Source: an uncultured Bacilli bacterium (lineage in GTDB: Bacteria; Bacillota_I; Bacilli_A; RF39; UBA660). Taken from it: a DNA stretch of 64,000 nt. The notes beneath the pieces were generated by a model that made no database searches, was not told the DNA's origin, and worked only from the letters and a program-made list of their open reading frames with translations. The stretch lies in assembly GCA_934130405.1 (NCBI GenBank), contig CAKOXX010000001.1, positions 11,566 through 75,565 of the forward strand, in the 5' to 3' direction. The stretch's first letter is position 1, and each line of letters opens with the position of its first letter. Of the stretch, positions 22,621 through 60,913 are shown piece by piece. Made by a program: the position numbers and the translations under genes.

Positions 22621-22697
22621 TGGTAGCCTGTACGGGGTTCGAACCCGTGAATACGAGCTTGAGAGGCGCGCGTGTTAAACCACTTCACCAACAGGCC
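22621..22697 (-). tRNA. tRNA-Glu (anticodon CUC), CCA encoded
   Basis: Minus strand GGCCTGTTGGTGAAGTGGTTTAACACGCGCGCCTCTCAAGCTCGTATTCACGGGTTCGAACCCCGTACAGGCTACCA. The acceptor, D and T arms (ACGGG-TTCGAAC-CCCGT) closely resemble Bacillus tRNA-Glu. Anticodon loop is C-T-CTC-A-A. Confidence 0.8.
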
Positions 22698-41877: not shown

Positions 41878-42108
41878 AAAACGAAAAAGACTCTAAATCC
41901 CAGTAAAGGGACGAGTCTTTTACCCGCGGTACCACCCAATTTATTATCGGTTAGATAATCGCTTATCTTGTTAACGGGAACTACCCGGCTTAGTCTACTT
42001 TGTTCTTTAAGCACTCCGAAGTGTTATTCGTAAATACTTTATCTTAACTGTTTTCACCAACCACAGCTTCTCTTATAAGTAAAGTATTCCTACTCGTCTT
42101 CATCAACG
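41878..42108 (-). promoter_or_regulatory. T-box riboswitch leader, probable Asn (AAC) specifier
   Basis: On the minus strand: Stem I with GA/K-turn (TGATGA), AGTA, AGAGA and GGTGAAA elements. Specifier loop is ...CGAAT-AAC-A-CTTCGG (codon at 42025..42023). T-box sequence AATTGGGTGGTACCGCGGG lies at 41942..41924. Terminator is AAAGACTC...GAGTCTTTTTCGTTTTC. Confidence 0.85.
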
Positions 42109-42223
42109 TTTTCTAATAAATTTTACAATGATATTTTATAATTTGTCAATTATTTATATAAATTTTTTGAAAAATTTATTATTTTAGTTTTTACAATTTG
42201 TAGCTAATTATACATGTCATATG

Positions 42224-43580: not shown

Positions 43581-44756
43581 TCAAGAAATATCAATTACAT
43601 CATAATAACTAGTCTTACCAGTATAGTTTACATCACTAATAGGAGTTTTAACTCCACTTTCACTATATTCTATATAATCAATTAAATGCTTATCACACCA
43701 CTCTTTACTTGGTTCATTACCTTCTCCAAACATTAAAGTTAAATCTATAATCATATAATCTTTAAAAGTAAACTCTGCCCAATCATATGATTCTATGTAA
43801 AAATGGTCATTTTCACTATTAGAAACGACAATTCCAGTATATATTCCTGTTGCATTAGGACTATAAATGAATTGAGTTTTTGGCCAATATTCTATTCCGT
43901 CTATTACTGTTTTGTGTGCAAATTCAAGTATTTTTTCCAAATTATGTCCCAACTTTTCAACTATAGATAATATATTAACATTATAATAATAATTGTGCCC
44001 AACACTTTTCATACTAGAAGCTGTCATCGCTATAGAATTACCCAAATAAGTAAGTCCATCAGTTGATAAAGTATAAGAGTCATCAGAATTCACTATTAAT
44101 TTTGCATATGTGCCTTTCCTAACAACTGCTATATTATTTTTTAATACATAATATTTTCTACATTCTCCATCTACGTAATAATTTCCTCCTGCATCTTGAC
44201 ACTTTTTATTTAAACTTTCTTCATTAGTTGATGCTCCTTCTATTCTAAGTTTTGCTTTAAAGACTTTATTTTCTTCTTCAGCTGTCATATCGCTTGAAAA
44301 CCATAATCTTAATTTATAGTTAATAGTTTGTCCACTATTAATTATTCCACTTTCTAGTTTTTGATTTCCTGTTAATGACTTAGCAACATTATTAGAACTA
44401 TCTCTTTCCAAACTATAATGAACATATTTCTGATCAATTCTAACATCACCTTCATCTAGTGGTTGATTATCTAAATAGATTGTATATGATGATGCTACTT
44501 TACCATTATTAGTTAATTTAAATGAATAGTAATTATTTAAATTAACACCTTCACTATCTGATAATGGTCCATCTGCTGATACTGTTATCGCATTACCATC
44601 TGATTCATCTAATACAAGTGATAAACTTCCAACTTTCAGAACACTATCTTTAGTTGCAAAGAAACTAGTTTGCAAAAATGCATATGATATTCCTAAAATA
44701 ATAAATATCAATATTACTAATAATATAACTAAAAATATATTTTGTCCCTTTTTCAT
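43581..44756 (-). CDS. SipW/TasA-type signal, TasA-like N-domain protein with a unique C-terminal domain (391 aa)
   Basis: N-terminus KKGQNIFLVILLVILIFIILGISYAFLQTS...VLKVGSLSLVLDES...FKLTNNGKVAS resembles the TasA/CalY signal plus first beta-strands (GGTWAAFND...GTLDLS...FENNGSL). Confidence 0.6.
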   Translation of the reverse strand: MKKGQNIFLVILLVILIFIILGISYAFLQTSFFATKDSVLKVGSLSLVLDESDGNAITVSADGPLSDSEGVNLNNYYSFKLTNNGKVASSYTIYLDNQPLDEGDVRIDQKYVHYSLERDSSNNVAKSLTGNQKLESGIINSGQTINYKLRLWFSSDMTAEEENKVFKAKLRIEGASTNEESLNKKCQDAGGNYYVDGECRKYYVLKNNIAVVRKGTYAKLIVNSDDSYTLSTDGLTYLGNSIAMTASSMKSVGHNYYYNVNILSIVEKLGHNLEKILEFAHKTVIDGIEYWPKTQFIYSPNATGIYTGIVVSNSENDHFYIESYDWAEFTFKDYMIIDLTLMFGEGNEPSKEWCDKHLIDYIEYSESGVKTPISDVNYTGKTSYYDVIDIS

Positions 44757-44787: not shown

Positions 44788-44819
44788 AAAAAAACAGAAT
44801 AAGCTTTTTCCTATTCCAT
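44788..44819 (-). terminator. Leader terminator-like hairpin 1
   Basis: Minus strand ATGGAATAGG-aaaaag-CTTATTCTGT (with G-U pairs) followed by T7, about 30 nt upstream of the gene start. Confidence 0.5.
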
Positions 44820-44850
44820 TACTTTTACACTATTAAAGAAAGCAGGTTTA

Positions 44851-44940
44851 TTACTTAATAAGTACCCCCCCCCAAGTTAATTTTAAGTTAACTTTTCTAG
44901 ACTTAAAAAGTGAGCAACTATTTTTAAAACAACTTTTCAT
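44851..44940 (-). CDS. Leader uORF 1 (29 aa) containing the G9 tract
   Basis: AGGTGA lies 6 nt before the ATG at 44940. Translation: MKSCFKNSCSLFKSRKVNLKLTWGGVLIK*. Confidence 0.5.
   Translation of the reverse strand: MKSCFKNSCSLFKSRKVNLKLTWGGVLIK
44865..44873 (-). repeat. Homopolymeric tract, C9 on plus strand (G9 in the transcript)
   Basis: Counted directly: agta-ccccccccc-aagtt. Confidence 0.95.
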
Positions 44941-45014
44941 AATTACTCACCTACTTTCTTTACTTTTATAGTTTATCACAGTTATTTTTGTATCTCAATA
45001 TATTTATTGAAATA

Positions 45015-46652
45015 CTATCCAATGGTAACAGTTCCTTTTCCTCCCAACTTATCTTCTAACCAAGCTTTAGTAGTTGCATCCTTAGTAATAATATTTATAT
45101 CTGATGCTACTAACGTAAATGTATTATCATAATTTGAAACAGATGTAAATACAGCTTTTCTTAAATCCAACCTTTTCAAACTTTTACACCAATTAAAAGT
45201 ATGAAACATATCAGTTACATTTTCTGTATTAAAACTACTAAGATTTAATTCTTGCAGATTAATATTAAAAGCAAACATATCACTCATTGTAGTAACTTTA
45301 CTTGTATCAAAACTACTTAAATCTAATTCAGTTAAAGAACCATAACTAGAAGTACCAAGATTTGTATCCCACATATTAAACATTGATGACATATCTGTTA
45401 CTTTTGATGTATCAAAACTAGATAAATTGATTGAGAACAATTTTTTACAATTACAAAACATCCCACCCATATTAGTTACATTACTAGTATTAAAATTACT
45501 CAAGTCTAGTGTTGTTAAATTCTTATCTCCGTTAAACATATGAAACATATCTGTTACTTTTGAAGTATTAAGATTGTCAATATTTAATGTCTGTAAACTC
45601 GTATTGTATGCAAACATATCTCGCATTATTGTCACGTTTGAGGTATCAAAACTACTTAAGTCTAATAAAGTTAAGCTACCAGTACTAGCAGCATCATCCG
45701 TTTTATTCCACATATTAAACATTCCATACATATTTGTAACTTTAGACGTATCAAAGTTACTTAAATCGATATTTAATAAACTTTTACAATTACTAAACAT
45801 TTGTGACATATCTGTAACCTGCGAGGTATTTAACAAAGTTAAATTTTCTATTGTTTTTAGTTCAGTAAAATAGTTAAATAGGTAACTAGAATTACTATTA
45901 GCAAATATTTCACCATTACTTTGGATATATAAAGTATTGGTACTATCATCGTTAGATACTATTTTACCAATAACACTATTATTATCATTTGCTGATAAGT
46001 CATAACTCTTAGTAGTGTTTTCTATATCATTTATTTTATCTTGAAATACTATCTTAGTAACTGTTTGTTTTTCTTCATCGATAAGTTTAAGAGATGATGC
46101 CATAGTATTAATATTTTGGCTAGCTTCTATTCTAAGTTTTGCTTTAAATACTTTATTTTCTTCTTCAGCTGTCATATCACTTGAAAACCATAATCTTAGT
46201 TTATAGTTGATAGTTTGTTTACTATTTATTATTCCACTTTCTAGTTTTTGCTCTCCAGTTAAAGACTTAGCAACATTATTAGAATCATCTCTTTCTAAAC
46301 TATAATGGACATATTCTTGGTCAATTCTGACATCACCTTCATCTAATGGTTGATTATCTAAATAGATTGTATATGATGATGCTACTTTTCCATTATTAGT
46401 TAATTTAAATGAATAGTAATCATTTAAATTAACACCTTCACTATCTGACAATGGTCCATCTGCTGATACTGTTATCGCATTACCATCTGACTCATCTAAT
46501 ACAAGTGCTAAACTACCTACTTTTAAAACATTATCATTACTTGCAAAGAAACTTGTTTGTAAAAATGCATATGATATTCCTAGAATAATAAATATCAAGA
46601 TTATAAGTAATATAATTAAAAATATATTTTGTTTATTAATCTTAGATTTCAT
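45015..46652 (-). CDS. TasA-like N-domain fused to BspA-type (DUF285) leucine-rich repeats (545 aa)
   Basis: The N-terminal ~180 aa are nearly identical to the 391-aa protein. The C-terminal part repeats LDLSxFDTSxVTxMxxMFxxCxxL, the DUF285/BspA LRR pattern. Confidence 0.7.
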   Translation of the reverse strand: MKSKINKQNIFLIILLIILIFIILGISYAFLQTSFFASNDNVLKVGSLALVLDESDGNAITVSADGPLSDSEGVNLNDYYSFKLTNNGKVASSYTIYLDNQPLDEGDVRIDQEYVHYSLERDDSNNVAKSLTGEQKLESGIINSKQTINYKLRLWFSSDMTAEEENKVFKAKLRIEASQNINTMASSLKLIDEEKQTVTKIVFQDKINDIENTTKSYDLSANDNNSVIGKIVSNDDSTNTLYIQSNGEIFANSNSSYLFNYFTELKTIENLTLLNTSQVTDMSQMFSNCKSLLNIDLSNFDTSKVTNMYGMFNMWNKTDDAASTGSLTLLDLSSFDTSNVTIMRDMFAYNTSLQTLNIDNLNTSKVTDMFHMFNGDKNLTTLDLSNFNTSNVTNMGGMFCNCKKLFSINLSSFDTSKVTDMSSMFNMWDTNLGTSSYGSLTELDLSSFDTSKVTTMSDMFAFNINLQELNLSSFNTENVTDMFHTFNWCKSLKRLDLRKAVFTSVSNYDNTFTLVASDINIITKDATTKAWLEDKLGGKGTVTIG

Positions 46653-46684: not shown

Positions 46685-48544
46685 TTATATCGCAAATGGA
46701 TTTAGAGCAGTTCCATCTCCCTTAATTATTTGAATATCTGCACGAAGACTTATAACTGGACGAACACTGTAGAGATTTGAGACATAACCCCAAGGATTCA
46801 GACTGCCCGAAGGAAGCACTCTCCAAACTTGTGCAACAGAGCTGTAAGACTCAAAGTTAGCCGGAGAGAGTGTCCAAAAATATTGTCCATTATATAGATA
46901 ATAATTACTGTTTGCTGTGTTATATATTCCGCCGGCCATTCCTACTTCATCTGCTGTAATAAGTGAAATTGGATAATCTAATTTAGCACTTTCATTTGAC
47001 ACTTTAAATTTATCATTATCTTGTGCACATTTTAAACTTGGTGCTTTCTTTTCATATAAACGTTCATATGTTCCATAAGTAGTAGTTGGTGGCGTTAAAT
47101 AACCATTACCCCAATTTATACTTCGATCATTACAGAATGTTTCATCTGCTAAATATGATGTATAACTTGTTAAATTGTTTTTATACCATGTATCTAGTGT
47201 ATTCTTCATTGTATTGTTTGTATTATTTGTTACTGCATCGGCATAACTATCACTGCTATAAGAAATTGGTTGGACTATCATTGTTGTATCATTTGAATAT
47301 CCTGTGATTTTATATACTACATTACAACTTGTATTTAAACAACTATATAGTTTTCCTGATACAATTTCATCCGAATTATCTTTCCAAGTTAATTGTTTGG
47401 TAGTTCCGGTTAATGTGAATTTTTTTGTTGTTTCATCAAAAGTGTATCCTGTTCCAAAGTTATATTTTGAGGTATTAGCAAACCAATTGTAACCTGTTGT
47501 TCCATTATTTTCATGTAGAGAAAACTTTTCATTATATTTATATCCGACATAAGTTGGATCCCAATATTTTTCATTAAACACTGAATTACCTATGTTTGTA
47601 GCAGTTCCTGTATCTGACGTTGTTTTTCCTGAATAAATCATTCTGATACTTCCATCTCCATTACGACGGATAATTCTCCAAGTATATCCTGCAAATGATA
47701 CATAGTTATTTTTCACTGCTCCTCTATAATAGTAGCTGTCTCCCTCATCATCCTCTGCCATGAATAAACCCTCATCGGTAGTAGCAGTTTTAGAAAAGTC
47801 TGGGGTTCCTTTGGCATTTATATTAGTCTTGGCACTTTCTACTGATATTTCATGATTGTTCATTACTAACATACAATCTGATAAAGTATTAAATCCATTA
47901 TCTTTGCAATAGGTATCTTCTACTTCTGCTACGGTATCTGAGGTTTGTCCGTAAACATTTACTTTTACTTTATATACTAATCCACCGTTATCACTTTGTG
48001 GATTATAACTTTCATCTACCCATAGTCTTAATCGATATTTGATTTCTGTATCTCCTTGTTGATTTAAATTTCCTACAAATAAACTCATCATATCTGATGG
48101 GCGACCAGTATAAACATTTCCAGTTGGGTCTTCTGAATAAGTTTTTGGTGGCATTGCTTCTTCTTCAGTACCATCGGAATTAACTTTCGTAAGATATAGT
48201 TTGATATTCTTTCCATCAAAGGTGTTTCCATTCTCTTCTTTCACTGCTATCTCATAGTTAATATCTGTATTCCCTGCTATTGATGATTTAATGGTAAAAT
48301 CAAAATATTCTCCAGAATTAAGTCTTTTCTTTCCAGTCGTATCGGTCGTCGGAAGAGCATTACTCATAGATATAATATTAGTACTTTCTGTATAATTCAT
48401 CGTTATTGCTCCAGTAGTTATGGTATTCAACTTTTGACCTATTCCTGAATAGTTAAATGCTGCATAACTGATACCAATAACAGCAATTAGTAAGATAAAA
48501 GTTGTTCCGATAGTTAATATATTTTTAAACTTTTGTTTATTCAT
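46685..48544 (-). CDS. SipW/TasA-type signal surface protein (619 aa)
   Basis: GISYAAFNYSG...ITTGAITMNY closely resembles TasA GGTWAAFND...ASGTLDLS. The C-terminal end ...VRPVISLRADIQIIKGDGTALNPFAI is shared with the 503- and 495-aa paralogs. Confidence 0.65.
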   Translation of the reverse strand: MNKQKFKNILTIGTTFILLIAVIGISYAAFNYSGIGQKLNTITTGAITMNYTESTNIISMSNALPTTDTTGKKRLNSGEYFDFTIKSSIAGNTDINYEIAVKEENGNTFDGKNIKLYLTKVNSDGTEEEAMPPKTYSEDPTGNVYTGRPSDMMSLFVGNLNQQGDTEIKYRLRLWVDESYNPQSDNGGLVYKVKVNVYGQTSDTVAEVEDTYCKDNGFNTLSDCMLVMNNHEISVESAKTNINAKGTPDFSKTATTDEGLFMAEDDEGDSYYYRGAVKNNYVSFAGYTWRIIRRNGDGSIRMIYSGKTTSDTGTATNIGNSVFNEKYWDPTYVGYKYNEKFSLHENNGTTGYNWFANTSKYNFGTGYTFDETTKKFTLTGTTKQLTWKDNSDEIVSGKLYSCLNTSCNVVYKITGYSNDTTMIVQPISYSSDSYADAVTNNTNNTMKNTLDTWYKNNLTSYTSYLADETFCNDRSINWGNGYLTPPTTTYGTYERLYEKKAPSLKCAQDNDKFKVSNESAKLDYPISLITADEVGMAGGIYNTANSNYYLYNGQYFWTLSPANFESYSSVAQVWRVLPSGSLNPWGYVSNLYSVRPVISLRADIQIIKGDGTALNPFAI

Positions 48545-48575: not shown

Positions 48576-48618
48576 AAAAAAGATAGATTTATATTATCAG
48601 TGATATTAATCTATCTTT
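48576..48618 (-). terminator. Leader terminator-like hairpin 2
   Basis: Minus strand AAAGATAGATT-(18-nt loop)-AATCTATCTTT followed by TTTTGTG. Confidence 0.5.
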
Positions 48619-48654
48619 ATTCCACGATAAAAGAAAGTAAGTCTTTTTCTTAAA

Positions 48655-48711
48655 TTAGTAAGTACCCCCCCCCCACGTTAATTTCTGGTTAACTTGAGTC
48701 AATCGATACAT
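48655..48711 (-). CDS. Leader uORF 2 (18 aa) containing the G10 tract
   Basis: AGGTGA lies 5 nt before the ATG at 48711. Translation: MYRLTQVNQKLTWGGGTY*. Confidence 0.5.
   Translation of the reverse strand: MYRLTQVNQKLTWGGGTY
48665..48674 (-). repeat. Homopolymeric tract, C10 on plus strand (G10 in the transcript)
   Basis: Counted directly: agta-cccccccccc-acgtt. Confidence 0.95.
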
Positions 48712-48794
48712 ACTAATCACCTACTTCCTATTTTTTATTATCAGTATTCTTGACATCTTAATAATATCATAATCTTTGAAATTTTACAATTAAT

Positions 48795-49226
48795 TTATCT
48801 TGATAAAGTTTCATTATAATTTTCTAAGAAAAAATAGTCTTGGTTTTTAAAGTCACAGATAAAATAATTATTATTTAAACTATTAAGTATCTTTAGAAAA
48901 AAAGAATTATAGTAATTAGTCTTTAATCTCATATAACTTCTCTTCACAATTAAAGACCCAATCTCATCATGACCTGGTTCGTTATAGTAATGCACCCCTT
49001 TTCTCTTACTATAAGGAATAGATTGATGATACTTAATAAAGATATGTTGGTCGATTTTCTCCTTATCAATCTTTTTAGTCAACTGATGAAATAAACTATA
49101 ACCATACTTAGCATTTTCTTCTCCTAAAAAATAAATTTGTTCTAATATCTGATACAGAATAGATGGCTTATCTTGATACAAACTTTTAAACTCATCCTTA
49201 ATCTCAAAAATAAAAAACTCTCTCAT
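48795..49226 (-). CDS. Hypothetical protein (weak resemblance to SirA/DUF2522)
   Basis: 143 aa. The overall pattern (FIFEIKDEF... ...FICDFKNQDYFFL) is reminiscent of Bacillus SirA, but this is only an impression. Confidence 0.35.
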   Translation of the reverse strand: MREFFIFEIKDEFKSLYQDKPSILYQILEQIYFLGEENAKYGYSLFHQLTKKIDKEKIDQHIFIKYHQSIPYSKRKGVHYYNEPGHDEIGSLIVKRSYMRLKTNYYNSFFLKILNSLNNNYFICDFKNQDYFFLENYNETLSR

Positions 49227-51236: not shown

Positions 51237-51974
51237 CTATTCATCCTTCTTTCCTTTAAGTAAGCCTAAGAGAAGATGTTTTTTCTCTCTAGACATTTTT
51301 TCTAAATACTTGCCATTATCAAATTTGATAATATCTTTTTTAAAATCAACTGATGTTACTCTATCTAGATTAATTATACAATTTCTATATACTTGAAAAA
51401 ATCTATTATCTAACTGTTCTTTTATCTGAATTAAACTAAGCGGAACAGTATATTCGCCGTGAGAGGCATAAACCGTTGATGTTTTACTATCAGGGTCTCT
51501 TATGATGTAATAAATATGTTTAAGTTCAATTCTTGAGTAAACACGGTTCCGTTGATAAGTTAAACATCTATCCTTTCCACGATAACTTTTTAATACTATG
51601 TCTAAAACTTCATCCATCTTTTTAGTGCAACTATCGAGCTTATTAATAAAGTCTAAAACAAATAAGCGATTAGTAATTATTTCATAGCGATATTCACTAA
51701 AAGACGAAACTATTATGATGATAGAATTCCAATCTTCAATCATTTCTCTTATAAATCTAGCAGCATCTATTCCTGAACCATAGTTAGTTTTGATATCTAG
51801 AAAGTAGACTTTAAAGCCAATTTCTTTACCTGCTAATTTTTCAAAATCTTGATTATATCCCGCAAAAGTGTAAATCTTATACTCCATATCAGTTCTCATC
51901 ATATAGTTATCAATTTGATTTTTCATTCCTTGTCTAAAAAACTGATCATCATCACATATAATAAAATTTAACAT
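51237..51974 (-). CDS. LytTR-family response regulator (no adjacent histidine kinase)
   Basis: Receiver domain (ICDDD...FLDI) plus a C-terminal LytTR domain (...IYYIIRD...FFQVYRNCIINLDRV). Confidence 0.8.
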   Translation of the reverse strand: MLNFIICDDDQFFRQGMKNQIDNYMMRTDMEYKIYTFAGYNQDFEKLAGKEIGFKVYFLDIKTNYGSGIDAARFIREMIEDWNSIIIIVSSFSEYRYEIITNRLFVLDFINKLDSCTKKMDEVLDIVLKSYRGKDRCLTYQRNRVYSRIELKHIYYIIRDPDSKTSTVYASHGEYTVPLSLIQIKEQLDNRFFQVYRNCIINLDRVTSVDFKKDIIKFDNGKYLEKMSREKKHLLLGLLKGKKDE

Positions 51975-52043: not shown

Positions 52044-53219
52044 TTATTTATATAAAATATCTAAATCTGTTAAGTTATTTATTCCATCTACTACTCCTCT
52101 ATCAGTCTTCTGCCAGATATTATATTCCTTCTGATAAGTAGTATTATTAGTATAATGTGCTAACCAAACAGGATAAGTATTATTAGTAAAAACATTTTCT
52201 AAATAGTATTTACTACCATAAAGCATTCCTTGATAACCTTCTTTCTCTACTGTTTCTAAGAAAGTATCAGCTATTTCTCCTAAATGGTAAAATGATAAGT
52301 TAAATTCTTGATAGAAAGAGAAGTTTTCCCAGTCAAAGACGATTGGCAGTTTAATGTCATAACCTTTAAGTTCTTTTAAAACCCAAAGAGCTTCCTTCTT
52401 CGCATCTTTTTTATCTTTAGCATAAGAATAGAAGTAAACGCCGGTCTTAATTCCTACTTTATTAAAGCCTTCAATATTTTCTTTAAACTTAGGGTCTAAG
52501 ACAAAGTCTTTATCAATTCCTTTTCTAGTACCAATTCTAATAAAAACGAACTCAACTCCAGCTTCTTTAACTTTTTCATAATCAATATCTTGTTGCCATT
52601 TAGAAACATCTATCCCAATTAAGGTATTAGCAGTTTTATTTTCTTGATAAAAATCTTTAAAAGCTATTTTTTCTTTCTCGCTACTAGGCACTTGGTAATC
52701 TTTCTTTTCTCTTACAGAGATGGTAAAGTCCTTTCTAGTAACATTTCCACTAGAATCAAGGGCTTCGTAAACTAACGGATAATCACCAACCGTATTAAAG
52801 TCATAATTACCAACTACTTGACAAGTCGGTTTATCATCATAGTTATCACCACAAAATACTTCTTTAGCAAAGTCTTCATCAGAACCTAAATCAACATAGT
52901 ATAAACTACTAAGGGAAATGACAGGAGGAATATCATCTACTACTTCATAAGTAAAAGTATAACTAGCAAGACGATTATCATCATTTTTATAAGTAAGAGT
53001 ATACTCATTCTTTCCGACCTTCTTGGTATTTAACTTTTCATTTTTATAAGTACCATTAATTGATTTAATAATATCATCTAGACTAGTATCACTATAAACT
53101 TGAAAAGTTAAGTCATCTGTTAAACTGACACTTACTGTTACTTCTCTTGTATTTAAATAGATAATACTTGCTATTAATAAACTAATAACTAGAAAGATAG
53201 CTAGTAAAGATTTTTTCAT
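52044..53219 (-). CDS. Membrane-anchored GH25 muramidase (lysozyme)
   Basis: N-terminal TM segment. GIDVSKWQQDIDYEKVKEAGVEFVFIRIG is typical of GH25. The start overlaps the mutS stop (ATGA). Confidence 0.8.
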   Translation of the reverse strand: MKKSLLAIFLVISLLIASIIYLNTREVTVSVSLTDDLTFQVYSDTSLDDIIKSINGTYKNEKLNTKKVGKNEYTLTYKNDDNRLASYTFTYEVVDDIPPVISLSSLYYVDLGSDEDFAKEVFCGDNYDDKPTCQVVGNYDFNTVGDYPLVYEALDSSGNVTRKDFTISVREKKDYQVPSSEKEKIAFKDFYQENKTANTLIGIDVSKWQQDIDYEKVKEAGVEFVFIRIGTRKGIDKDFVLDPKFKENIEGFNKVGIKTGVYFYSYAKDKKDAKKEALWVLKELKGYDIKLPIVFDWENFSFYQEFNLSFYHLGEIADTFLETVEKEGYQGMLYGSKYYLENVFTNNTYPVWLAHYTNNTTYQKEYNIWQKTDRGVVDGINNLTDLDILYK

Positions 53220-55777
53220 TCGTCTTTCTTCATCTCCTCTTTCAAACGATATAAAAAGTTTAAAGCGTCCATTGGACTCATTTCTAAAGGGTTAATTTCT
53301 TTAATTTTCTCAAGATACTTATTTTCTTTTTCTTCTTGCTCTTCTACTTCTTGGTCAAACAAGCTAGTCTGTGTATAAATAGTTTCTCTTTTTTCTTGAT
53401 TTTCATACACATTTAAGATTTCTTCTGCTCTTTTAATTAAAGATTTAGGTAAATCAGCTAAACTAGCAACATTAATACCATAACTCTTATCAACAGAACC
53501 ATTTTTAATCTTATGAAGAAATGTTAGTTTTCCATCTTCTTCGACAGCTGAAACGTGAACATTCTTTAGATGAGCTAAACTACTTGCAAGTTCTGTTAAT
53601 TCGTGATAGTGCGTAGAAAATAAAGTCTTAGCACCAATATTATCATGAATATATTCTAATATCGCTTGTGCCAAACTCATTCCATCATAAGTAGCAGTAC
53701 CACGACCTAACTCATCAAATAAAATTAAACTATTCTTAGTTGCACGTGATATCGCTAAGTTAGCTTCTTTCATTTCCACCATAAAGGTACTTTCACCACT
53801 AACTAAATCATCACTTGCTCCTATTCTTGTAAATATCTTATCAAAAACAGGAATAGTACAACTCTTAGCTGGTACAAAAGAACCTATCTGGGCCATAATA
53901 ACAGTAATAGCAAGTTGACGCATATAAGTAGATTTACCAGCCATATTTGGTCCAGTAATAAGTAAAATAGACGTATCTTTATCCATTATTATATCATTAG
54001 CAACATACTTTTCATTCTTCTTAGCCATTACTTCTTCTACTACCGGATGACGACTTTCAATTATCTTTACTTCATTCTTATCATTTAAGACTGGTTTTAC
54101 AAAGTGATAATTATCTGCTACAAAAGAAAGTGCTGATAACATATCAATCTCTGCTAGAATATTAGCACATTTCTGTAACGGTAAAATATATCTTTTAACA
54201 ACTTCTCTAATTTGCATAAACAGTTGATATTCTAAGTTAATTATCTTCTCTTCTGCTCCTAGAATAATACTTTCTTTTTCTTTTAATTCCTTAGTAGTAA
54301 ATCTTTCACAATTAGATAGAGTCTGTCTTCTATCATACCCAAACTCTTCTTTTACTAAATCACATTGTCCTTTACTAATTTCAATATAATAACCAAAGAC
54401 TTTGTTATAACCAACCTTTAAGTTCTTAATACCAGTTCTTTCTTTTTCTTTCTGTTCTAGTTCTAATAAGAAGTCTTTACTACCACTTGATAAGTCTCTT
54501 AACTCATCTAGTTCTTCATTATAACCTTTCTTGATTAAGTTTCCTTCTTTTAGAGAAATCGGTGGTTCTTCATTCAAACTATTATCAAATAAAGATACTA
54601 AATCATCAAAAGTTTCTATTTTTTTATCATATTTTATTTCTTCTAGTATTTTCTTAATAGTAGGTAGAGCTTTCAAACTAGAATTTAATTGTAATAAGTC
54701 TCTCGCATTTAAGTTACCATAACAAACTCTGCCGATAAGTCTTTCAATGTCATAGACTTGATTTAAGCTTTTCTTTAAGTCATCTCTTAAGATAAACTCC
54801 GTTTGTAATACTTCGATATAATGATAACGACGTTCTAGTTCTTTTCTATCTATTAAAGGAAACTCTAAGTTCTTTCTAAGTAATCTACTTCCCATTGCTG
54901 TTTGATTTTTATCAAGTAACCATAACAAACTATAAGTCTTTTCTCTAAGTCTAAGTGTTTCTGTTAACTCAAGATTACGTTTAGTATGTTCATCTAGTAA
55001 TAAATGTGCATTAATTAGTTCCACTTTTGCAGCTTGTAAATGCGATAAATCACCTTTTTTAGTATTAACAGTATAAGCAAGTAAGTGTTTAATTCCTCTT
55101 TCTTTTCGTAAGTCATTTAGCTCTTTATAAATATAACTATACTGTTCATCATCATTATAATCATTATAAATCGTAACATTTAACTGATAAGTCTTACGAA
55201 GAGTATTAATAAAGTTACGGTCAATTTCATCACTGACAATTATCTCCTCAAAACCATGACGAATAATCTCTTGTAATAATTCTTGTAAACTATCATCTAG
55301 AATTGTGACATAAACTTCTCCCGTAGAAATATCAGCATAACTTAATGCATACGAGTTGGCGGTATAAGTAACCGATGCTAAAAAGTTATTCTTAGTGTCA
55401 TCAATCGAACCATCTAGTCTTGTTCCACTAGTAACGATTTGAATTACTTCCCTCTTAACCATTTCTTTAGTAAGTTTAGGGTCTTCAACTTGCTCAACGA
55501 TTGCTACTTTATATCCCATTTCTACTAATTTATCTAAATATGCTTCATAAGCTTTAAAAGGAATACCACACATTGGTACTTTTTCTTCTAAACCAGCTTG
55601 CTTCCCTGTTAAAGTTAATTCTAATATCTTAGATGCCACAATAGCATCATCAAAGAACATTTCATAAAAGTCTCCTAAGCGAAAAAAAATAATCGCATCT
55701 GGATTTTCGTCTTTTATCTTCATCCACTGTAACATAACAGGGCTTAATTTAGTTCTATCTACTTCGTTTCTTAACAT
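53216..55777 (-). CDS. mutS: DNA mismatch repair protein MutS
   Basis: TPVMLQW-like N-terminus (SPVMLQWMKIK), Walker A TGPNMAGKST, and STFMVEM. Confidence 0.95.
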   Translation of the reverse strand: MLRNEVDRTKLSPVMLQWMKIKDENPDAIIFFRLGDFYEMFFDDAIVASKILELTLTGKQAGLEEKVPMCGIPFKAYEAYLDKLVEMGYKVAIVEQVEDPKLTKEMVKREVIQIVTSGTRLDGSIDDTKNNFLASVTYTANSYALSYADISTGEVYVTILDDSLQELLQEIIRHGFEEIIVSDEIDRNFINTLRKTYQLNVTIYNDYNDDEQYSYIYKELNDLRKERGIKHLLAYTVNTKKGDLSHLQAAKVELINAHLLLDEHTKRNLELTETLRLREKTYSLLWLLDKNQTAMGSRLLRKNLEFPLIDRKELERRYHYIEVLQTEFILRDDLKKSLNQVYDIERLIGRVCYGNLNARDLLQLNSSLKALPTIKKILEEIKYDKKIETFDDLVSLFDNSLNEEPPISLKEGNLIKKGYNEELDELRDLSSGSKDFLLELEQKEKERTGIKNLKVGYNKVFGYYIEISKGQCDLVKEEFGYDRRQTLSNCERFTTKELKEKESIILGAEEKIINLEYQLFMQIREVVKRYILPLQKCANILAEIDMLSALSFVADNYHFVKPVLNDKNEVKIIESRHPVVEEVMAKKNEKYVANDIIMDKDTSILLITGPNMAGKSTYMRQLAITVIMAQIGSFVPAKSCTIPVFDKIFTRIGASDDLVSGESTFMVEMKEANLAISRATKNSLILFDELGRGTATYDGMSLAQAILEYIHDNIGAKTLFSTHYHELTELASSLAHLKNVHVSAVEEDGKLTFLHKIKNGSVDKSYGINVASLADLPKSLIKRAEEILNVYENQEKRETIYTQTSLFDQEVEEQEEKENKYLEKIKEINPLEMSPMDALNFLYRLKEEMKKDE

Positions 55778-57111: not shown

Positions 57112-58623
57112 TTATTCTGCTAAAATGAATGGATCAGTTGATGAACCTGTTCCAGAGGTTATATTTATTGTTGACTTTAGATAGACGACTGGACGTTCCT
57201 CAAGAGCAGCATAGGCATAAGTATTGTGAACAGCTCCATAAGCATAAACATCGAAAACATAAGCAGAATCAGTAGCAAACGAGCTCATTGTCCATTGTAT
57301 TTTTGATGATTTATAAAGCCAGTCATTATCTCTACAATTAATATAGCTACTATCATCCCAACTATATAATTCTACTGTCATACAACTCATTCTATTTGTA
57401 CTACTTCCGCCACTTGTTGCATATCCATAGTCACTTGGGTACATTAATCCTACTTTTCCTATCCAATTGGTACTGCGTCCACTATACACTGCTGTTCCTC
57501 TTTCATTTTTATAAAAATCTGATGTTGATAATCCATTTGTTGAACTAAAATAATCTGCAGGACTACCTAGATACCACTTTGCATCTCCTATCATTAGTTT
57601 TGCTGTATCTGTTAGACCAGTAGAAGTAAAATTACATGATGTTGTACCATTATATTGTCCATAGTAACAGGTCCCACTCTTTCTATTCCAATATAAACTA
57701 CCTCCATAAGTTTCACTTTCATGTCCTGGATTTAGTAAATAGTTTAGTCTTGCTTCTGGCCAGCTATTCTTTCCCCAATGATTTTCTGCTCCAGTTGATA
57801 AATCTTTATTATCCCATGAGTAAGCCCCTATTGATTCATTTCTTATTATCTTTAGTCTCTTTTCTTTTTTTCCTGTTCCATCATCGACATCAAATACTCC
57901 GATTATTCGCCATAATTCATCACTAAATTTAACATAATTATTTGGATTTGCTCCGATATAGCGATAATCAGTGGTTACTTCTAACTGTTCAGTTTCTTCA
58001 TGGGAAAATGTCCACATTTGATTTTTTTGATCATCCGTTGCTGTATTATAGTCTAAATCTTCTGGATTAGCATTTGCTACCAAAGTTTCTGTTGCTGGTG
58101 GATTACTTAATAATAAGAATACTGTTGTTCCACTTGGTAATGTTAAGTTAGAATTATTTAAGCCCATTGAGAAACCTATTTTAATTTGCTTGCCAGTTGC
58201 TCCCTTAATTTTTATCTTATAAGTTAATGTCTTTCCAGCTTCTACTGATACTCCTTCAACCGTTGGAATAGTTGGGCTATCAGATGTATAACCTATCTCA
58301 ATTGAACTATCTGATAGATTGTAGTAATAGATTGAATTTTTTACTGTTCTATCGCTTGTATTAGTTACTGTTAAAGTAATAGTATCATTATCTGTTGATG
58401 GTGTATAAGTAATTACGCCAGTTCCATTAATTGTTACGGAGTTACTTCCTATCGCTACTGTTCCATTTAAAGTACCTGTTACTACGCTATATTGCTGTAC
58501 TCCTTGAACAGTAAACCACGCATAAGAAAAGTATCCCATCAGCATTAAGCCACTTACTCCAAATAAAATAAACATATAACTTGTTGATATTTTTGTATCC
58601 AATAATTTCTTAAATATTTTCAT
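57112..58623 (-). CDS. SipW/TasA-type signal surface protein (503 aa)
   Basis: N-terminus ...LMLMGYFSYAWFTVQG...VVTGTLNGTV. C-terminus ERPVVYLKSTINITSGTGSSTDPFILAE. Paralog of the 495-aa and 619-aa proteins. Confidence 0.65.
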   Translation of the reverse strand: MKIFKKLLDTKISTSYMFILFGVSGLMLMGYFSYAWFTVQGVQQYSVVTGTLNGTVAIGSNSVTINGTGVITYTPSTDNDTITLTVTNTSDRTVKNSIYYYNLSDSSIEIGYTSDSPTIPTVEGVSVEAGKTLTYKIKIKGATGKQIKIGFSMGLNNSNLTLPSGTTVFLLLSNPPATETLVANANPEDLDYNTATDDQKNQMWTFSHEETEQLEVTTDYRYIGANPNNYVKFSDELWRIIGVFDVDDGTGKKEKRLKIIRNESIGAYSWDNKDLSTGAENHWGKNSWPEARLNYLLNPGHESETYGGSLYWNRKSGTCYYGQYNGTTSCNFTSTGLTDTAKLMIGDAKWYLGSPADYFSSTNGLSTSDFYKNERGTAVYSGRSTNWIGKVGLMYPSDYGYATSGGSSTNRMSCMTVELYSWDDSSYINCRDNDWLYKSSKIQWTMSSFATDSAYVFDVYAYGAVHNTYAYAALEERPVVYLKSTINITSGTGSSTDPFILAE

Positions 58624-58644: not shown

Positions 58645-58677
58645 AAAAAACAGAATAAGATTAGATTCCTATCCTGT
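58645..58677 (-). terminator. Leader terminator-like hairpin 3
   Basis: Minus strand ACAGGATAGG-aatctaat-CTTATTCTGT (two G-U pairs) followed by TTTTTTGTG. Confidence 0.5.
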
Positions 58678-58714
58678 TTTTTTTACACTATTAAAGAAAG
58701 TAGTTTTCTCTACC

Positions 58715-58777
58715 TTATATAAGTACCCCCCCCCAAGTTAATTTCTGGTTAACTTGAGTTCCTAAGATATTTATCAT
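58715..58777 (-). CDS. Leader uORF 3 (20 aa) containing the G9 tract
   Basis: ATG at 58777. Translation: MINILGTQVNQKLTWGGVLI*. Confidence 0.5.
   Translation of the reverse strand: MINILGTQVNQKLTWGGVLI
58726..58734 (-). repeat. Homopolymeric tract, C9 on plus strand (G9 in the transcript)
   Basis: Counted directly: aagta-ccccccccc-aagtt. Confidence 0.95.
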
Positions 58778-58860
58778 ATTACCATCTACTTTCTTTTTAT
58801 TGTTCACTTAAATTTTATCATTTTTTTATCATCTATACAATATGTTTATTTTCTAAATTA

Positions 58861-60348
58861 TTATTCATCAGATAAAACATAAGGATTTGATTTTTCACCT
58901 GTTCCTGATGCTATTTTCACAGAAGATTTCAAATAAACTGTTGGTCTTGCAGTATGATTACTATAGCTATTAGCTGTACTAAGATAACTTTGTTGTACAC
59001 GAAATGTAGAATAAGAAATATCTGATCTAGAATTTATAGTCCATTGCATAGCTGATGATTTATAAAGCCAGTCATTATTATAACAATCAGAATAGTTATT
59101 CCAACTGGCAAGCGAAGTTTGTAAACATGTATTTCTATTAGTTGTACTTCCTCCACTTGTGGCATAACCATAATCAGAAGGATAAATTAGTCCTACTTTT
59201 CCTATCCAAGATGTATCTCTTCCACTAAATACAGTATTTCCCCTTTCATAAGAGTAAAAATTTGAGACTAGTCCTGTTGCACTTGTTGTCCCTCCCAAAT
59301 ACCACTTTGCATTATCTATAGCAGCCTTTGCTTCCATCGTTAAACCAGTAGATGTAAAATCACATGATGAAGTTGAATTACCACTTCCCTTGTAACAATT
59401 TCCACTCTTTCTATTCCAATATAAGCTTCCACCATAACTTTCACTTTCGTGTCCTTCATTCAATAAATAATTAAGTCTTGCATCAGTCCAGTTATTTTTA
59501 CCATTTGCACTTTCTGCACCAGTTGATGTATTCTTATTGTCCCAACTATAACTTCCGATAGCATTGTTTCTTATTATTTTTATTCTCTTTTCTACTTTAC
59601 CGGTTCCATCATCAACATCAAATACCCCAATTATTCGCCATACCTCATCATTAAATGTTACATAATTATTAGGACTGCTTCCTATATATCTATAATCAGT
59701 TAATGCCTCTGTTTGGTCTGTTTTATCATGAGAAAATTTCCACATTTGATTCTTTTGATCATCGGTTGCTGTATTGTAATCCAAATCTTCTTTATTAGCA
59801 TTTGTTATTAAGTTTTCCACTCCAGTTGGTTCTAACTTTTCAAAAGCATTGGTTCCAACTGGTAATGTCAAATTGGAATTATTTAAGCCCATTGATGAGC
59901 CTATTTTTATTTGTTTACCAGTTGCTCCTGTTATCTTTATATAGTAGGTTAGTATACCTCCTTTTTCTACTGATACTCCAGTAACTTCAGGAATAGTTGG
60001 ACTATCTACAGTATAACCAATTTTAATTGAGCTATCTGATAAATCATAGTAACAAATAGAGTTTTTTGCTGTTCTATCATTTGTGTTAGTTACTGTTAAA
60101 GTAATAGTGTCACTATCTGTCGATGGTGTATAAGTAATTACGCCAGTTCCATTAATTGTTACGGAGTTACTTCCTATCGCTACTGTTCCATTTAAAGTAC
60201 CTGTTACTACGCTATATTGCTGTACTCCTTGAACAGTAAACCACGCATAAGAAAAGTATCCCATCAGCATTAAGCCACTTACTCCAAATAAAATAAACAT
60301 ATAACTTGTTGATACTTTTGTATCAAATAACTTTCTAAATATTTTCAT
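58861..60348 (-). CDS. SipW/TasA-type signal surface protein (495 aa)
   Basis: Paralog of the 503-aa protein. Shares a 193-nt perfectly identical 5' segment (60122..60314 vs 58397..58589). Confidence 0.65.
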   Translation of the reverse strand: MKIFRKLFDTKVSTSYMFILFGVSGLMLMGYFSYAWFTVQGVQQYSVVTGTLNGTVAIGSNSVTINGTGVITYTPSTDSDTITLTVTNTNDRTAKNSICYYDLSDSSIKIGYTVDSPTIPEVTGVSVEKGGILTYYIKITGATGKQIKIGSSMGLNNSNLTLPVGTNAFEKLEPTGVENLITNANKEDLDYNTATDDQKNQMWKFSHDKTDQTEALTDYRYIGSSPNNYVTFNDEVWRIIGVFDVDDGTGKVEKRIKIIRNNAIGSYSWDNKNTSTGAESANGKNNWTDARLNYLLNEGHESESYGGSLYWNRKSGNCYKGSGNSTSSCDFTSTGLTMEAKAAIDNAKWYLGGTTSATGLVSNFYSYERGNTVFSGRDTSWIGKVGLIYPSDYGYATSGGSTTNRNTCLQTSLASWNNYSDCYNNDWLYKSSAMQWTINSRSDISYSTFRVQQSYLSTANSYSNHTARPTVYLKSSVKIASGTGEKSNPYVLSDE

Positions 60349-60369
60349 AAACTACCTCTTTCTACACAC

Positions 60370-60402
60370 AAAAAACAGAATAAGATTAAATTCCTATCCT
60401 GT
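60370..60402 (-). terminator. Leader terminator-like hairpin 4
   Basis: Minus strand ACAGGATAGG-aatttaat-CTTATTCTGT followed by TTTTTTGTG. Confidence 0.5.
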
Positions 60403-60437
60403 TTTTTACACTATTAAAGAAAGTAGTTTTTTCTACC

Positions 60438-60500
60438 TTATATAAGTACCCCCCCCCAGGTTAATTTCTGGTTAACTTGAGCTTCTAAGATATTCATCAT
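60438..60500 (-). CDS. Leader uORF 4 (20 aa) containing the G9 tract
   Basis: GAGGG lies 4-7 nt before ATGATG at 60500. Translation: MMNILEAQVNQKLTWGGVLI*. Confidence 0.5.
   Translation of the reverse strand: MMNILEAQVNQKLTWGGVLI
60449..60457 (-). repeat. Homopolymeric tract, C9 on plus strand (G9 in the transcript)
   Basis: Counted directly: aagta-ccccccccc-aggtt. Confidence 0.95.
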
Positions 60501-60559
60501 ATTACCCTCTACTTTCTTTTTATTGTTCACCTAAATTTTACCAAATATCATATAAATAT

Positions 60560-60913
60560 TCAACAATATTTATTTTCTATAATATATGCTATTTCCCTTC
60601 CATTTCTGCCAATCTCAATACCGTTATTCTTCTGAATTATTCTTTGCATTTTAATATTATCAAATGAAACTGAACATATAACTGATTTATTAACTTTGGA
60701 TAATAGCAATTTAAATACAGCACTTCCATATCCCTTATTTTGATATTTTTGAGCAATAATTATAAATAGTTCATCTCTTACTTTTTTACGTATAATTGCA
60801 TAACCAATTTTAATATTGCTTAAATAACATTCATATAGTTGATCACCTTTTGATAATTCAAACTTTTGAATTAAATCATCAGTTATTTTAGTCACTTCAT
60901 TTAAACTTATCAT
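60560..60913 (-). CDS. GNAT-family N-acetyltransferase
   Basis: 117 aa with Q-x-x-G-x-G/A-like motif QNKGYGSAVFKLLL. Overlaps the upstream gene by 4 nt. Confidence 0.65.
   Translation of the reverse strand: MISLNEVTKITDDLIQKFELSKGDQLYECYLSNIKIGYAIIRKKVRDELFIIIAQKYQNKGYGSAVFKLLLSKVNKSVICSVSFDNIKMQRIIQKNNGIEIGRNGREIAYIIENKYC

Follow-up and report, generated by a model that had tools for sequence, protein, structure and literature searches.

The DNA analyzed here, referred to as the window, is a 64-kb stretch with a GC content of 28.9% from an uncultured human-gut Bacilli bacterium, and it carries four related leader elements upstream of genes for putative surface proteins. The leaders, which are named by position as the 44-, 48-, 58-, and 60-kb copies, precede genes encoding proteins of 391 amino acids (aa), 619 aa (followed by a second gene of 545 aa), 503 aa, and 495 aa, respectively, and the products of the genes 3' of the leaders carry N-terminal signal or transmembrane segments. 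The leaders have a core in common, AAATTAAC-N-TGGGGGGGG, which has exactly four matches in the window, all on the minus strand (44866-44883, 48667-48684, 58727-58744, and 60450-60467), as compared to zero expected in shuffled sequence. The variable base is T, G, T, and C, respectively, and the motif search thus agrees with the preliminary description of this DNA, which had reported these bases before TGG as the end of an ACN codon (Thr). The order of the parts is the same in all four leaders and consists of a promoter, a strong Shine-Dalgarno sequence (SD), a short upstream open reading frame (uORF) that contains a run of G, an arm complementary to the SD (anti-SD arm), an intrinsic terminator, and the gene. 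The features are listed below, with (-) denoting the minus strand and nt denoting nucleotides.

60535-60563 (-), sigma-70-type promoter of the 60-kb leader from a promoter scan, with TTGAAT, a 17-nt spacer, and the extended -10 TGgTAAAAT
60509-60519 (-), 5' arm of helix P1, AAAGAAAGTAG, part of the extended SD; then AGGG, with the ATG 8 nt further; perfect reverse complement of 60416-60426
60438-60500 (-), uORF of the 60-kb leader, MMNILEAQVNQKLTWGGVLI and stop, 20 codons, short state, G9
60460-60478 (-), tandem 8-mers AAGTTAAC-CAG-AAATTAAC with an 11-nt period
60459 (-), variable base C, third position of the Thr codon ACN
60449-60457 (-), G9 homopolymer (C9 on the plus strand) in the uORF, presumed hypermutable tract
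60416-60426 (-), 3' arm of P1, CTACTTTCTTT, an anti-SD mimic complementary to the SD region of the uORF
60370-60407 (-), intrinsic terminator, hairpin (A-tract, CAGGATAGGAAT / ATCTTATTCTG) and T6, -15.8 kcal/mol
60386-60388 (-), stop codon at which the only long frame ends when the run is G8 or G11; within the terminator hairpin, 63 nt past the run
58861-60348 (-), 495-aa gene of the 60-kb leader, start codon at 60348, ribosome-binding site (RBS) AGAAAGAGG just 5'
58645-58820 (-), 58-kb leader: extended -10 58812-58820; P1 5' arm 58786-58796; uORF 58715-58777; G9 58726-58734; anti-SD arm 58693-58703; terminator 58645-58682
57112-58623 (-), 503-aa gene of the 58-kb leader
48579-48769 (-), 48-kb leader (type IV), short state: extended -10 48761-48769; P1 5' arm 48721-48731; uORF 48655-48711; G10 48665-48674; anti-SD arm 48630-48640; terminator 48579-48618
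48606-48608 (-), stop codon of the long frame that G9 would give in the 48-kb leader
46685-48544 (-), 619-aa gene of the 48-kb leader
45015-46652 (-), gene for the 545-aa PARCEL surface protein, also 3' of the 48-kb leader
44788-44978 (-), 44-kb leader (type II): extended -10 44970-44978; P1 5' arm 44951-44961; uORF 44851-44940; G9 44865-44873; anti-SD arm 44835-44845; terminator 44788-44825
43581-44756 (-), 391-aa gene of the 44-kb leader

The position of the upstream promoter places the uORF inside the transcript, and ∼26 of 31 related leaders have an extended -10 at the corresponding position. The uORFs of the four copies, in the order of the genes above, encode MKSCFKNSCSLFKSRKVNLKLTWGGVLIK, MYRLTQVNQKLTWGGGTY, MINILGTQVNQKLTWGGVLI, and MMNILEAQVNQKLTWGGVLI, each followed by a stop codon. 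The translation of 60438-60500 agrees with that given in the preliminary description, and the purine-rich SD that was claimed 5' of each of the four ATGs is present. It should be noted that the run of the 48-kb copy is G10, which had been missed, and that the residues following WGG are GTY and stop there as compared to VLI and stop. The four leader runs are the sole runs of six or more G or C in the window, and related loci contain 51 runs of seven or more G inside leaders versus two elsewhere.

Related leaders were gathered by a DNA-pattern scan of metagenomes and by look-ups of homologous proteins. Of 8000 candidates that were scored, 6969 were homologs of the 495-aa protein at E ≤ 1e-5. The protein-based scan of reference genomes led to seven loci and the DNA-pattern scan of metagenomes led to 27 loci, five of which were unrelated chance matches. 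The initial set consisted of 28 distinct leaders and the later set consisted of 60 parsed leader instances (51 and nine more), which takes in a divergent lineage, type V, as well as leaders without a G run. The labels L001 to L059 refer to the related loci from metagenomes and metagenome-assembled genomes (MAGs) that were compared with the window. The relatives comprise MAGs with the label Bacilli as well as Candidatus Ventrenecus, and the exact 495-aa protein is present on 23 metagenome contigs.

Across this sample, the frame of the uORF is strictly kept. A strong SD with an ATG 7 to 9 nt further and in frame with the core is found in 27 of the 28 distinct leaders. In the sole exception, L006:5896, one nt is deleted and a TGA interrupts the frame; it looks like a decayed copy. 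In frame 0, 11 to 30 codons are open 5' of the core, versus 0 to 18 and 0 to 2 in the other two frames. The N-terminal parts of the uORFs cannot be aligned and fall into eight length classes (9, 18, 24, 39, 42, 45, 48, and 51 nt), all of which are multiples of 3, and the long alleles are annotated by gene callers as genes of 32 to 34 aa. Because the SD and ATG are kept in frame and the N-terminal lengths are multiples of 3, translation of the uORF is well supported by the sequence comparison.

The preliminary description had also argued for a translated leader peptide, and that part of its conclusion stands on frame conservation, whereas its reasoning from synonymous substitutions fails. The codon ACN is four-fold degenerate, so any change at its last base is synonymous by definition, and the argument that this base behaves as a wobble position amounts to a single varying site that happens to be the last base of a codon, a 1-in-3 event. 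Nor are the differences between the four copies synonymous in general, since they include Q/K, Q/L, and wholly different N-termini. The suggested search for codon-periodic substitution was carried out with the 28 distinct leaders and returned 8, 15, and 12 variable columns at codon positions 1, 2, and 3, respectively, with no third-position excess. Within alignable leader groups, the 19 variable codons comprise 2 that are synonymous-only and 17 that are amino-acid changing. The variable base itself is C in ten, T in ten, G in three, and A in one of the related leaders, a usage that departs from that of the Thr codons of the genome (ACT.48, ACA.37, ACC.09, and ACG.07).

Synonymous sites of the core are invariant against the codon bias of the genome, as seen for AAC (AAT is preferred 84:16), GGG (6% usage), and CTT (18%). 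In the type V lineage, the architecture and the G run are kept and the peptide differs, with ...SLHLVNMGGG... in place of ...KLTWGG.... Because of the frozen synonymous sites, the amino-acid changing substitutions, and the type V peptide, the comparison indicates that the target of selection is an open frame of the right phase and extent together with nucleotide-level elements, and not the sequence of the leader peptide. The tandem 8-mers are invariant including their synonymous sites, retain the 11-nt period, and occur in type V as TAGTTTAC-ATC-TAGTTAAC. A hairpin-capable conserved element ends 2 nt before the run (-0.4 to -4.6 kcal/mol), and a hairpin formed from the tandem 8-mers was set aside as too weak to convince. 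In L001:4616 and in L059, both of which correspond to window 58726-58734, a T takes the place of the run's first G (TTTG8 versus TTG9), which changes Trp to Leu and leaves the frame unchanged.

The reading frames past the run show a consistent pattern. In 28 of 28 leaders exactly one frame is long, crossing the anti-SD arm and stopping 54 to 66 nt after the run inside the terminator hairpin, and the two other frames stop 10 to 20 nt past the run, before the anti-SD arm; over the whole analysis, these ranges widen to 54 to 68 nt and 10 to 22 nt, respectively. The T run of the terminator begins 69 to 87 nt past the G run in the same leaders. The long frame requires G8 or G11 in spacer types I to III, whose spacers differ in length by multiples of 3 (19, 22, and 25 nt, or 22, 25, and 28 nt when measured to CTTTC), and it requires G9 in type IV, the type of the 48-kb copy. 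Type V also has a single long frame, which is phased differently with respect to the anti-SD arm.

Run length varies between leaders and between copies of one locus. Runs of 7, 8, 9, and 10 G occur across the leaders, with G9 in about 80% of instances. At the 619-aa locus, where the protein is identical, the run is G9 in L053 and L054, where the uORF has 34 aa, and G10 in the window, L056, and L057, with 0 to 2 mismatches in the flanks. Both run lengths are found on both alleles of a linked A/G single-nucleotide polymorphism, which implies recurrent change. At the 391-aa locus, with an identical protein, the run is G9 in four contigs from other samples as well as in the window, and G10 in two. 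Even leaders without a G run differ in this manner, as a 2-nt indel separates the short uORF of L037 (15 aa) from the long uORF of L040 and L042 (32 aa), all of which have the identical protein P0013 on the 3' side. The short state is found in 45 of 51 instances, five of the six long ones represent the type IV G9 allele, and nine further instances are all short. The long allele is common only at the type IV locus (5/9).

Some related sites depart from this arrangement. A member of this leader family that lies ∼170 nt 5' of a 508-aa gene in L043 to L048 (L043:9831-10000) has TAGTGAAAG in place of the G run, and its uORF crosses the anti-SD arm and stops just past it; this leader may be a locked variant. 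A G7 run within an RBS-like AAAAAGGGGGGGAATAAATATG, just 5' of a helix-turn-helix gene in L037:20626 and L039:20626, may be a different kind of tract-dependent site. Lastly, comparison of L010 to L036 with the window shows that the leaders are mosaics in which modules for the uORF N-terminus, the post-run spacer, the terminator, and the RBS are variously combined in front of different gene families, which suggests frequent recombination among copies.

At the RNA level, the SD arm and the anti-SD arm are complementary in every leader, and these are the two arms of P1. Within the inner seven pairs of P1, 16 of 16 changed cells give G.U on the sense strand and none gives an unpaired position. The 5' arm of P1 is likely to resemble the complement of the 3' end of Firmicute 16S RNA. 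A terminator hairpin and T run are present in every copy (-7 to -16 kcal/mol), with stem sequences that differ between types. A simple terminator scan missed these terminators, as their stems have fewer than three G-C pairs by the rule of the scan. We also considered that the anti-SD arm sequesters the RBS of the main gene, which is plausible in types I to IV, with a pairing energy of -9 to -13 kcal/mol as compared to -6 ± 2 kcal/mol for shuffled arms. This pairing is absent in type V, L013, L023, and L037 and was therefore rejected as a defining feature. A search of Rfam 15 with the leaders returned no family at the gathering threshold and none that was convincing at E ≤ 10, the chance-level matches all having E ≥ 5.8.

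Taken together, these observations make it probable that the leaders are phase-variable, translation-dependent transcription attenuators, in which a slipped-strand change in the length of the leader ORF is coupled to attenuation. The proposal was built on the architecture, the frame conservation, the run-length polymorphism on identical backgrounds, and the stop positions, all of which were observed in silico. In the proposed mechanism, transcription would begin at the sigma-70-type promoter and a ribosome would load at the strong SD and translate the short uORF with its hypermutable G run. With most run lengths the uORF would end 10 to 20 nt past the run, before the anti-SD arm. The anti-SD arm would then pair with the SD of the uORF itself, forming P1, the terminator would form, and the surface-protein gene would be OFF or low. 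Slipped-strand mispairing that adds or removes one G, presumably at high frequency within a population, would create the single long frame, which runs through the anti-SD arm into the terminator hairpin. A ribosome on this frame would block the hairpin, transcription would read through, and the gene would be ON. The ON state of the long frame, the frequent mutation of the run, and the role of P1 are proposed by analogy with the pil1/pil3 system of Streptococcus gallolyticus, for which there is experimental proof.

Several points weigh against this interpretation. The predicted ON allele (G8 or G11) of types I to III and V is the assembly consensus in 0 of ∼50 instances; G10 was seen at least six times. 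The lack of an ON consensus in types I to III and V fits a family that is mostly OFF, and it is also compatible with slippage of transcription or translation on G9. Composition-matched shuffles of a single leader give one long and two short frames in 14 to 22% of cases, and the leader types are homologous, which leaves the joint significance of the pattern modest; its weight rests on recurrence across diverged types and can be considered moderate. The covariation test of P1 returned no double compensatory changes and did not exceed the shuffle control. Run-length differences between metagenome assemblies could partly reflect homopolymer assembly error. In addition, a MutS gene is present at 53216-55777, and mismatch repair may limit the rate of switching. 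Lastly, the attenuator model leaves the invariant tandem 8-mers before the run unexplained.

The literature that was searched contains one system that combines leader-ORF phase variation with attenuation, namely the pili of Streptococcus gallolyticus with their pentanucleotide repeat, and no description of a homopolymer version of such a switch was found in it. At the pil1 and pil3 loci, GCAGA repeats within a leader-peptide ORF shift the frame, longer leader peptides end within or past the terminator, and the ribosome prevents the hairpin from forming so that transcription rises; the evidence came from mutants of the ATG, the stop codons, and the terminator (Danne et al. 2014, PLoS Pathog, PMC3894217). 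The leaders described here have the same order of promoter, short leader ORF with a simple sequence repeat, intrinsic terminator, and genes for surface structures, and a frame change at the repeat likewise shifts the leader stop codon from well 5' of the terminator to inside it. Every sequence-level feature of the pil1/pil3 mechanism (a uORF with SD and ATG, a variable repeat, a terminator, and a relocated stop codon) is therefore present, and the majority state, which is OFF or low for pil1/pil3, is predicted to be the same. There are also clear differences. The repeat is a G7 to G10 homopolymer rather than 13 to 22 copies of GCAGA, and one of three frames is long rather than both the +1 and -1 repeat changes as in pil1. 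The anti-SD arm, with its pairing to the SD of the same leader, and the invariant tandem 8-mers are additions, and the leaders occur as many paralogs per genome (four in 20 kb) in an uncultured spore-forming lineage of gut Bacilli. As there is no sequence homology with the pil1 leader and there are no GCAGA repeats, the mechanism would be an analogous one, predicted here from the DNA sequence.

Other well-known systems share individual parts of this arrangement. The poly-G/C contingency loci known from Campylobacter, Neisseria, Haemophilus, and Helicobacter carry their tract within the structural gene itself or as a spacer that separates the -35 and -10 elements. Like them, the leaders involve G/C homopolymers of 8 to 11, a low-GC host-associated genome, surface-protein genes, and lengths that are polymorphic between near-identical strains; unlike in them, the tract belongs to an upstream ORF of its own and is predicted to act on the terminator. 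The leader ORF of Escherichia coli pyrBI extends over the attenuator, and expression is set by polymerase pausing that depends on uridine triphosphate, without a mutable tract or ON and OFF genetic states. The point of likeness is that a ribosome on a leader ORF that overlaps the terminator would physically block the hairpin, as is predicted for the leaders in the window.

One alternative idea, with a small but appreciable chance of being correct, is that the tandem 8-mers and G9 form a dedicated module that sets switching, either by causing polymerase or ribosome to pause or slip or by binding a trans-acting protein such as an AgrA-like LytTR regulator. The many paralogous surface-protein loci of the lineage would thereby be co-ordinated or tuned to conditions rather than switching one by one, resulting in a regulated stochastic switch in place of simple slipped-strand phase variation.

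Programmed recoding is, in our judgment, rather unlikely. In this scenario, polymerase slippage or ribosomal +1/-1 frameshifting on G9 would feed a set or regulated share of the ribosomes into the long frame and the leader would be a rheostat, not a genetic switch, with possible help from the upstream hairpin or 8-mers and from the SD-like G run. Recoding would account for the remarkable uniformity in run length, nine nucleotides being the length of an RNA:DNA hybrid. G GGG GGG is a slippery sequence. Recoding would also account for a predicted ON allele that is never fixed in types I to III and for a hairpin-capable conserved element that sits so close to the run. However, run length does differ between otherwise identical DNA sequences, the type IV locus encodes the long frame directly, and very little folding energy is available to the upstream hairpin.

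The alternative closest to the idea of the preliminary description is a sensory or arrest peptide, in which K/Q-V-N-x-K-L-T-W-G-G would stall the ribosome in response to a ligand or to the supply of Trp- or Gly-transfer RNA and thereby remodel the leader RNA. We find this improbable. Arrest peptides typically have a conserved C-terminal segment behind an N-terminus that varies freely in sequence and length, as is seen here, Trp is followed by two rare GGG codons (6% of Gly codons), and alternative pairings past the run (TACTTA / TAAGTAG / CTACTT) can be found by inspection. Nevertheless, the core does not vary at its synonymous sites and goes against codon bias there, which places the constraint at the nucleotide level, and type V retains the G run, the anti-SD arm, the terminator, and the long-frame property with a different peptide that lacks Trp. 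The locus persists when a change in run length alters the residues that follow GG, the regulated genes have no biosynthetic role, and no segment complementary to a terminator arm, which could serve as an antiterminator, was found in the leader folds or by inspection. For the same reasons, two known classes were rejected as models: amino-acid-sensing attenuators of the trp/his type, because the single Trp codon is absent in type V, and ribosome arrest peptides such as SecM, MifM, TnaC, and the Erm leaders, because the core is fixed at synonymous sites and the peptide is not kept in type V.

Just as improbable is a structured RNA or G-repeat bound by a trans-acting factor, with the uORF being incidental. 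Candidates for the factor are a small RNA (sRNA) whose loop is rich in C and U and a protein that binds RNA or DNA and recognizes the tandem 8-mers. The conservation of the 8-mers and the G run at the nucleotide level and the enclosure of the element by the long-range helix P1 speak for such a factor. A LytTR-type response regulator that weakly matches AgrA is encoded between the two leader pairs (window 51237-51974, minus strand); it is an orphan, with no histidine kinase gene next to it. AAGTTAAC resembles the AgrA box. The spacing does not fit, being 11 nt versus the 21 to 22 nt of LytTR sites. The 8-mer pair was found nowhere else in the window, so there is no regulon of the pair within it. 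Precedent for the sRNA version comes from Helicobacter pylori, where the tlpB messenger RNA leader is reported to contain a length-variable G-repeat that is targeted by the RepG sRNA and modulates expression (PMC8295292). The leaders in the window resemble it in having a length-variable G homopolymer in the 5' leader of a gene, and they differ in that the repeat, an untranslated sRNA target in tlpB, lies here in a frame-conserved uORF. No partner sRNA was identified and no other G/C run of six or more is present in the window, although a C/U-rich partner may lie elsewhere in the genome. A trans-acting factor also leaves the strict frame over eight N-terminal length classes and the single long frame unaccounted for, and it finds no convincing Rfam match even at E ≤ 10.

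A DNA-level element, whether a promoter with a poly-G spacer of the Bordetella fim or Neisseria porA type or a segment that inverts between the 11-nt inverted repeats, is scarcely credible: TTAACN does resemble a -35 hexamer, the TAYWAR past the run does resemble a weak -10 on inspection, and the P1 arms are perfect inverted repeats, but the promoter was rejected for its spacer of only 14 nt with G9, for -10 candidates that on inspection lack the final T, and for the good extended -10 promoter upstream, a transcript begun past the run would still meet the terminator, and inversion is countered by repeat mismatches that are all G.U and on the sense strand only and by 0 of 51 instances inverted relative to the gene, the apparent inverted matches being reverse complements of the same loci.

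The attenuator interpretation concerns a set of poorly characterized genes. The 495- or 503-, 619-, and 391-aa proteins have no sequence match in Pfam, NCBIfam, or PDB. The 495-aa protein has an N-terminal transmembrane or signal segment and a beta-sandwich domain, and its AlphaFold model is poor, with a predicted local distance difference test (pLDDT) score of 42.6. A homolog of its C-terminal domain is found in L009:4540-5673 on a type IV pilin-like N-terminus (MKKRGFTLTEVLGV...) without a poly-G leader. Another protein, P0001, has 812 aa and 96% identity over the whole 495-aa query and may be a fusion or read-through form. The 545-aa operon partner of the 619-aa protein is a PARCEL-repeat (PARCEL/DUF285) surface protein. 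Its ∼170 N-terminal residues are nearly identical to those of the 391-aa protein and the C-terminal domains differ, which suggests that the two are modular, cassette-like surface proteins.

Other features of the window and the related loci bear on the host. A SirA-like sporulation protein is encoded at window 48795-49226 on the minus strand, and SpoVA and SpoIID genes are found in related loci (L043:11609-13395); these genes indicate that the uncultured lineage is spore-forming. The window also contains a T-box leader at 41904-42115 on the minus strand (Rfam RF00230, 135.9 bits), which lies 5' of a small gatC-like ORF followed by ORFs of amidotransferase size, and a transfer RNA for Glu with the anticodon CTC at 22621-22697 on the minus strand.

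For annotation, the leaders serve as a warning that tiny uORFs with G runs 5' of terminators would be functional parts and not noise. The ON and OFF states of variable surface proteins could be called from metagenomes by comparing run length modulo 3 with the positions of the stop codons, and the regulated family of secreted proteins has thousands of members. If the attenuator mechanism is correct, the logic of the leader-ORF switch would have arisen independently on the basis of a homopolymer, and an abundant yet uncultured group of spore-forming human-gut Bacilli would use it many times in each genome.

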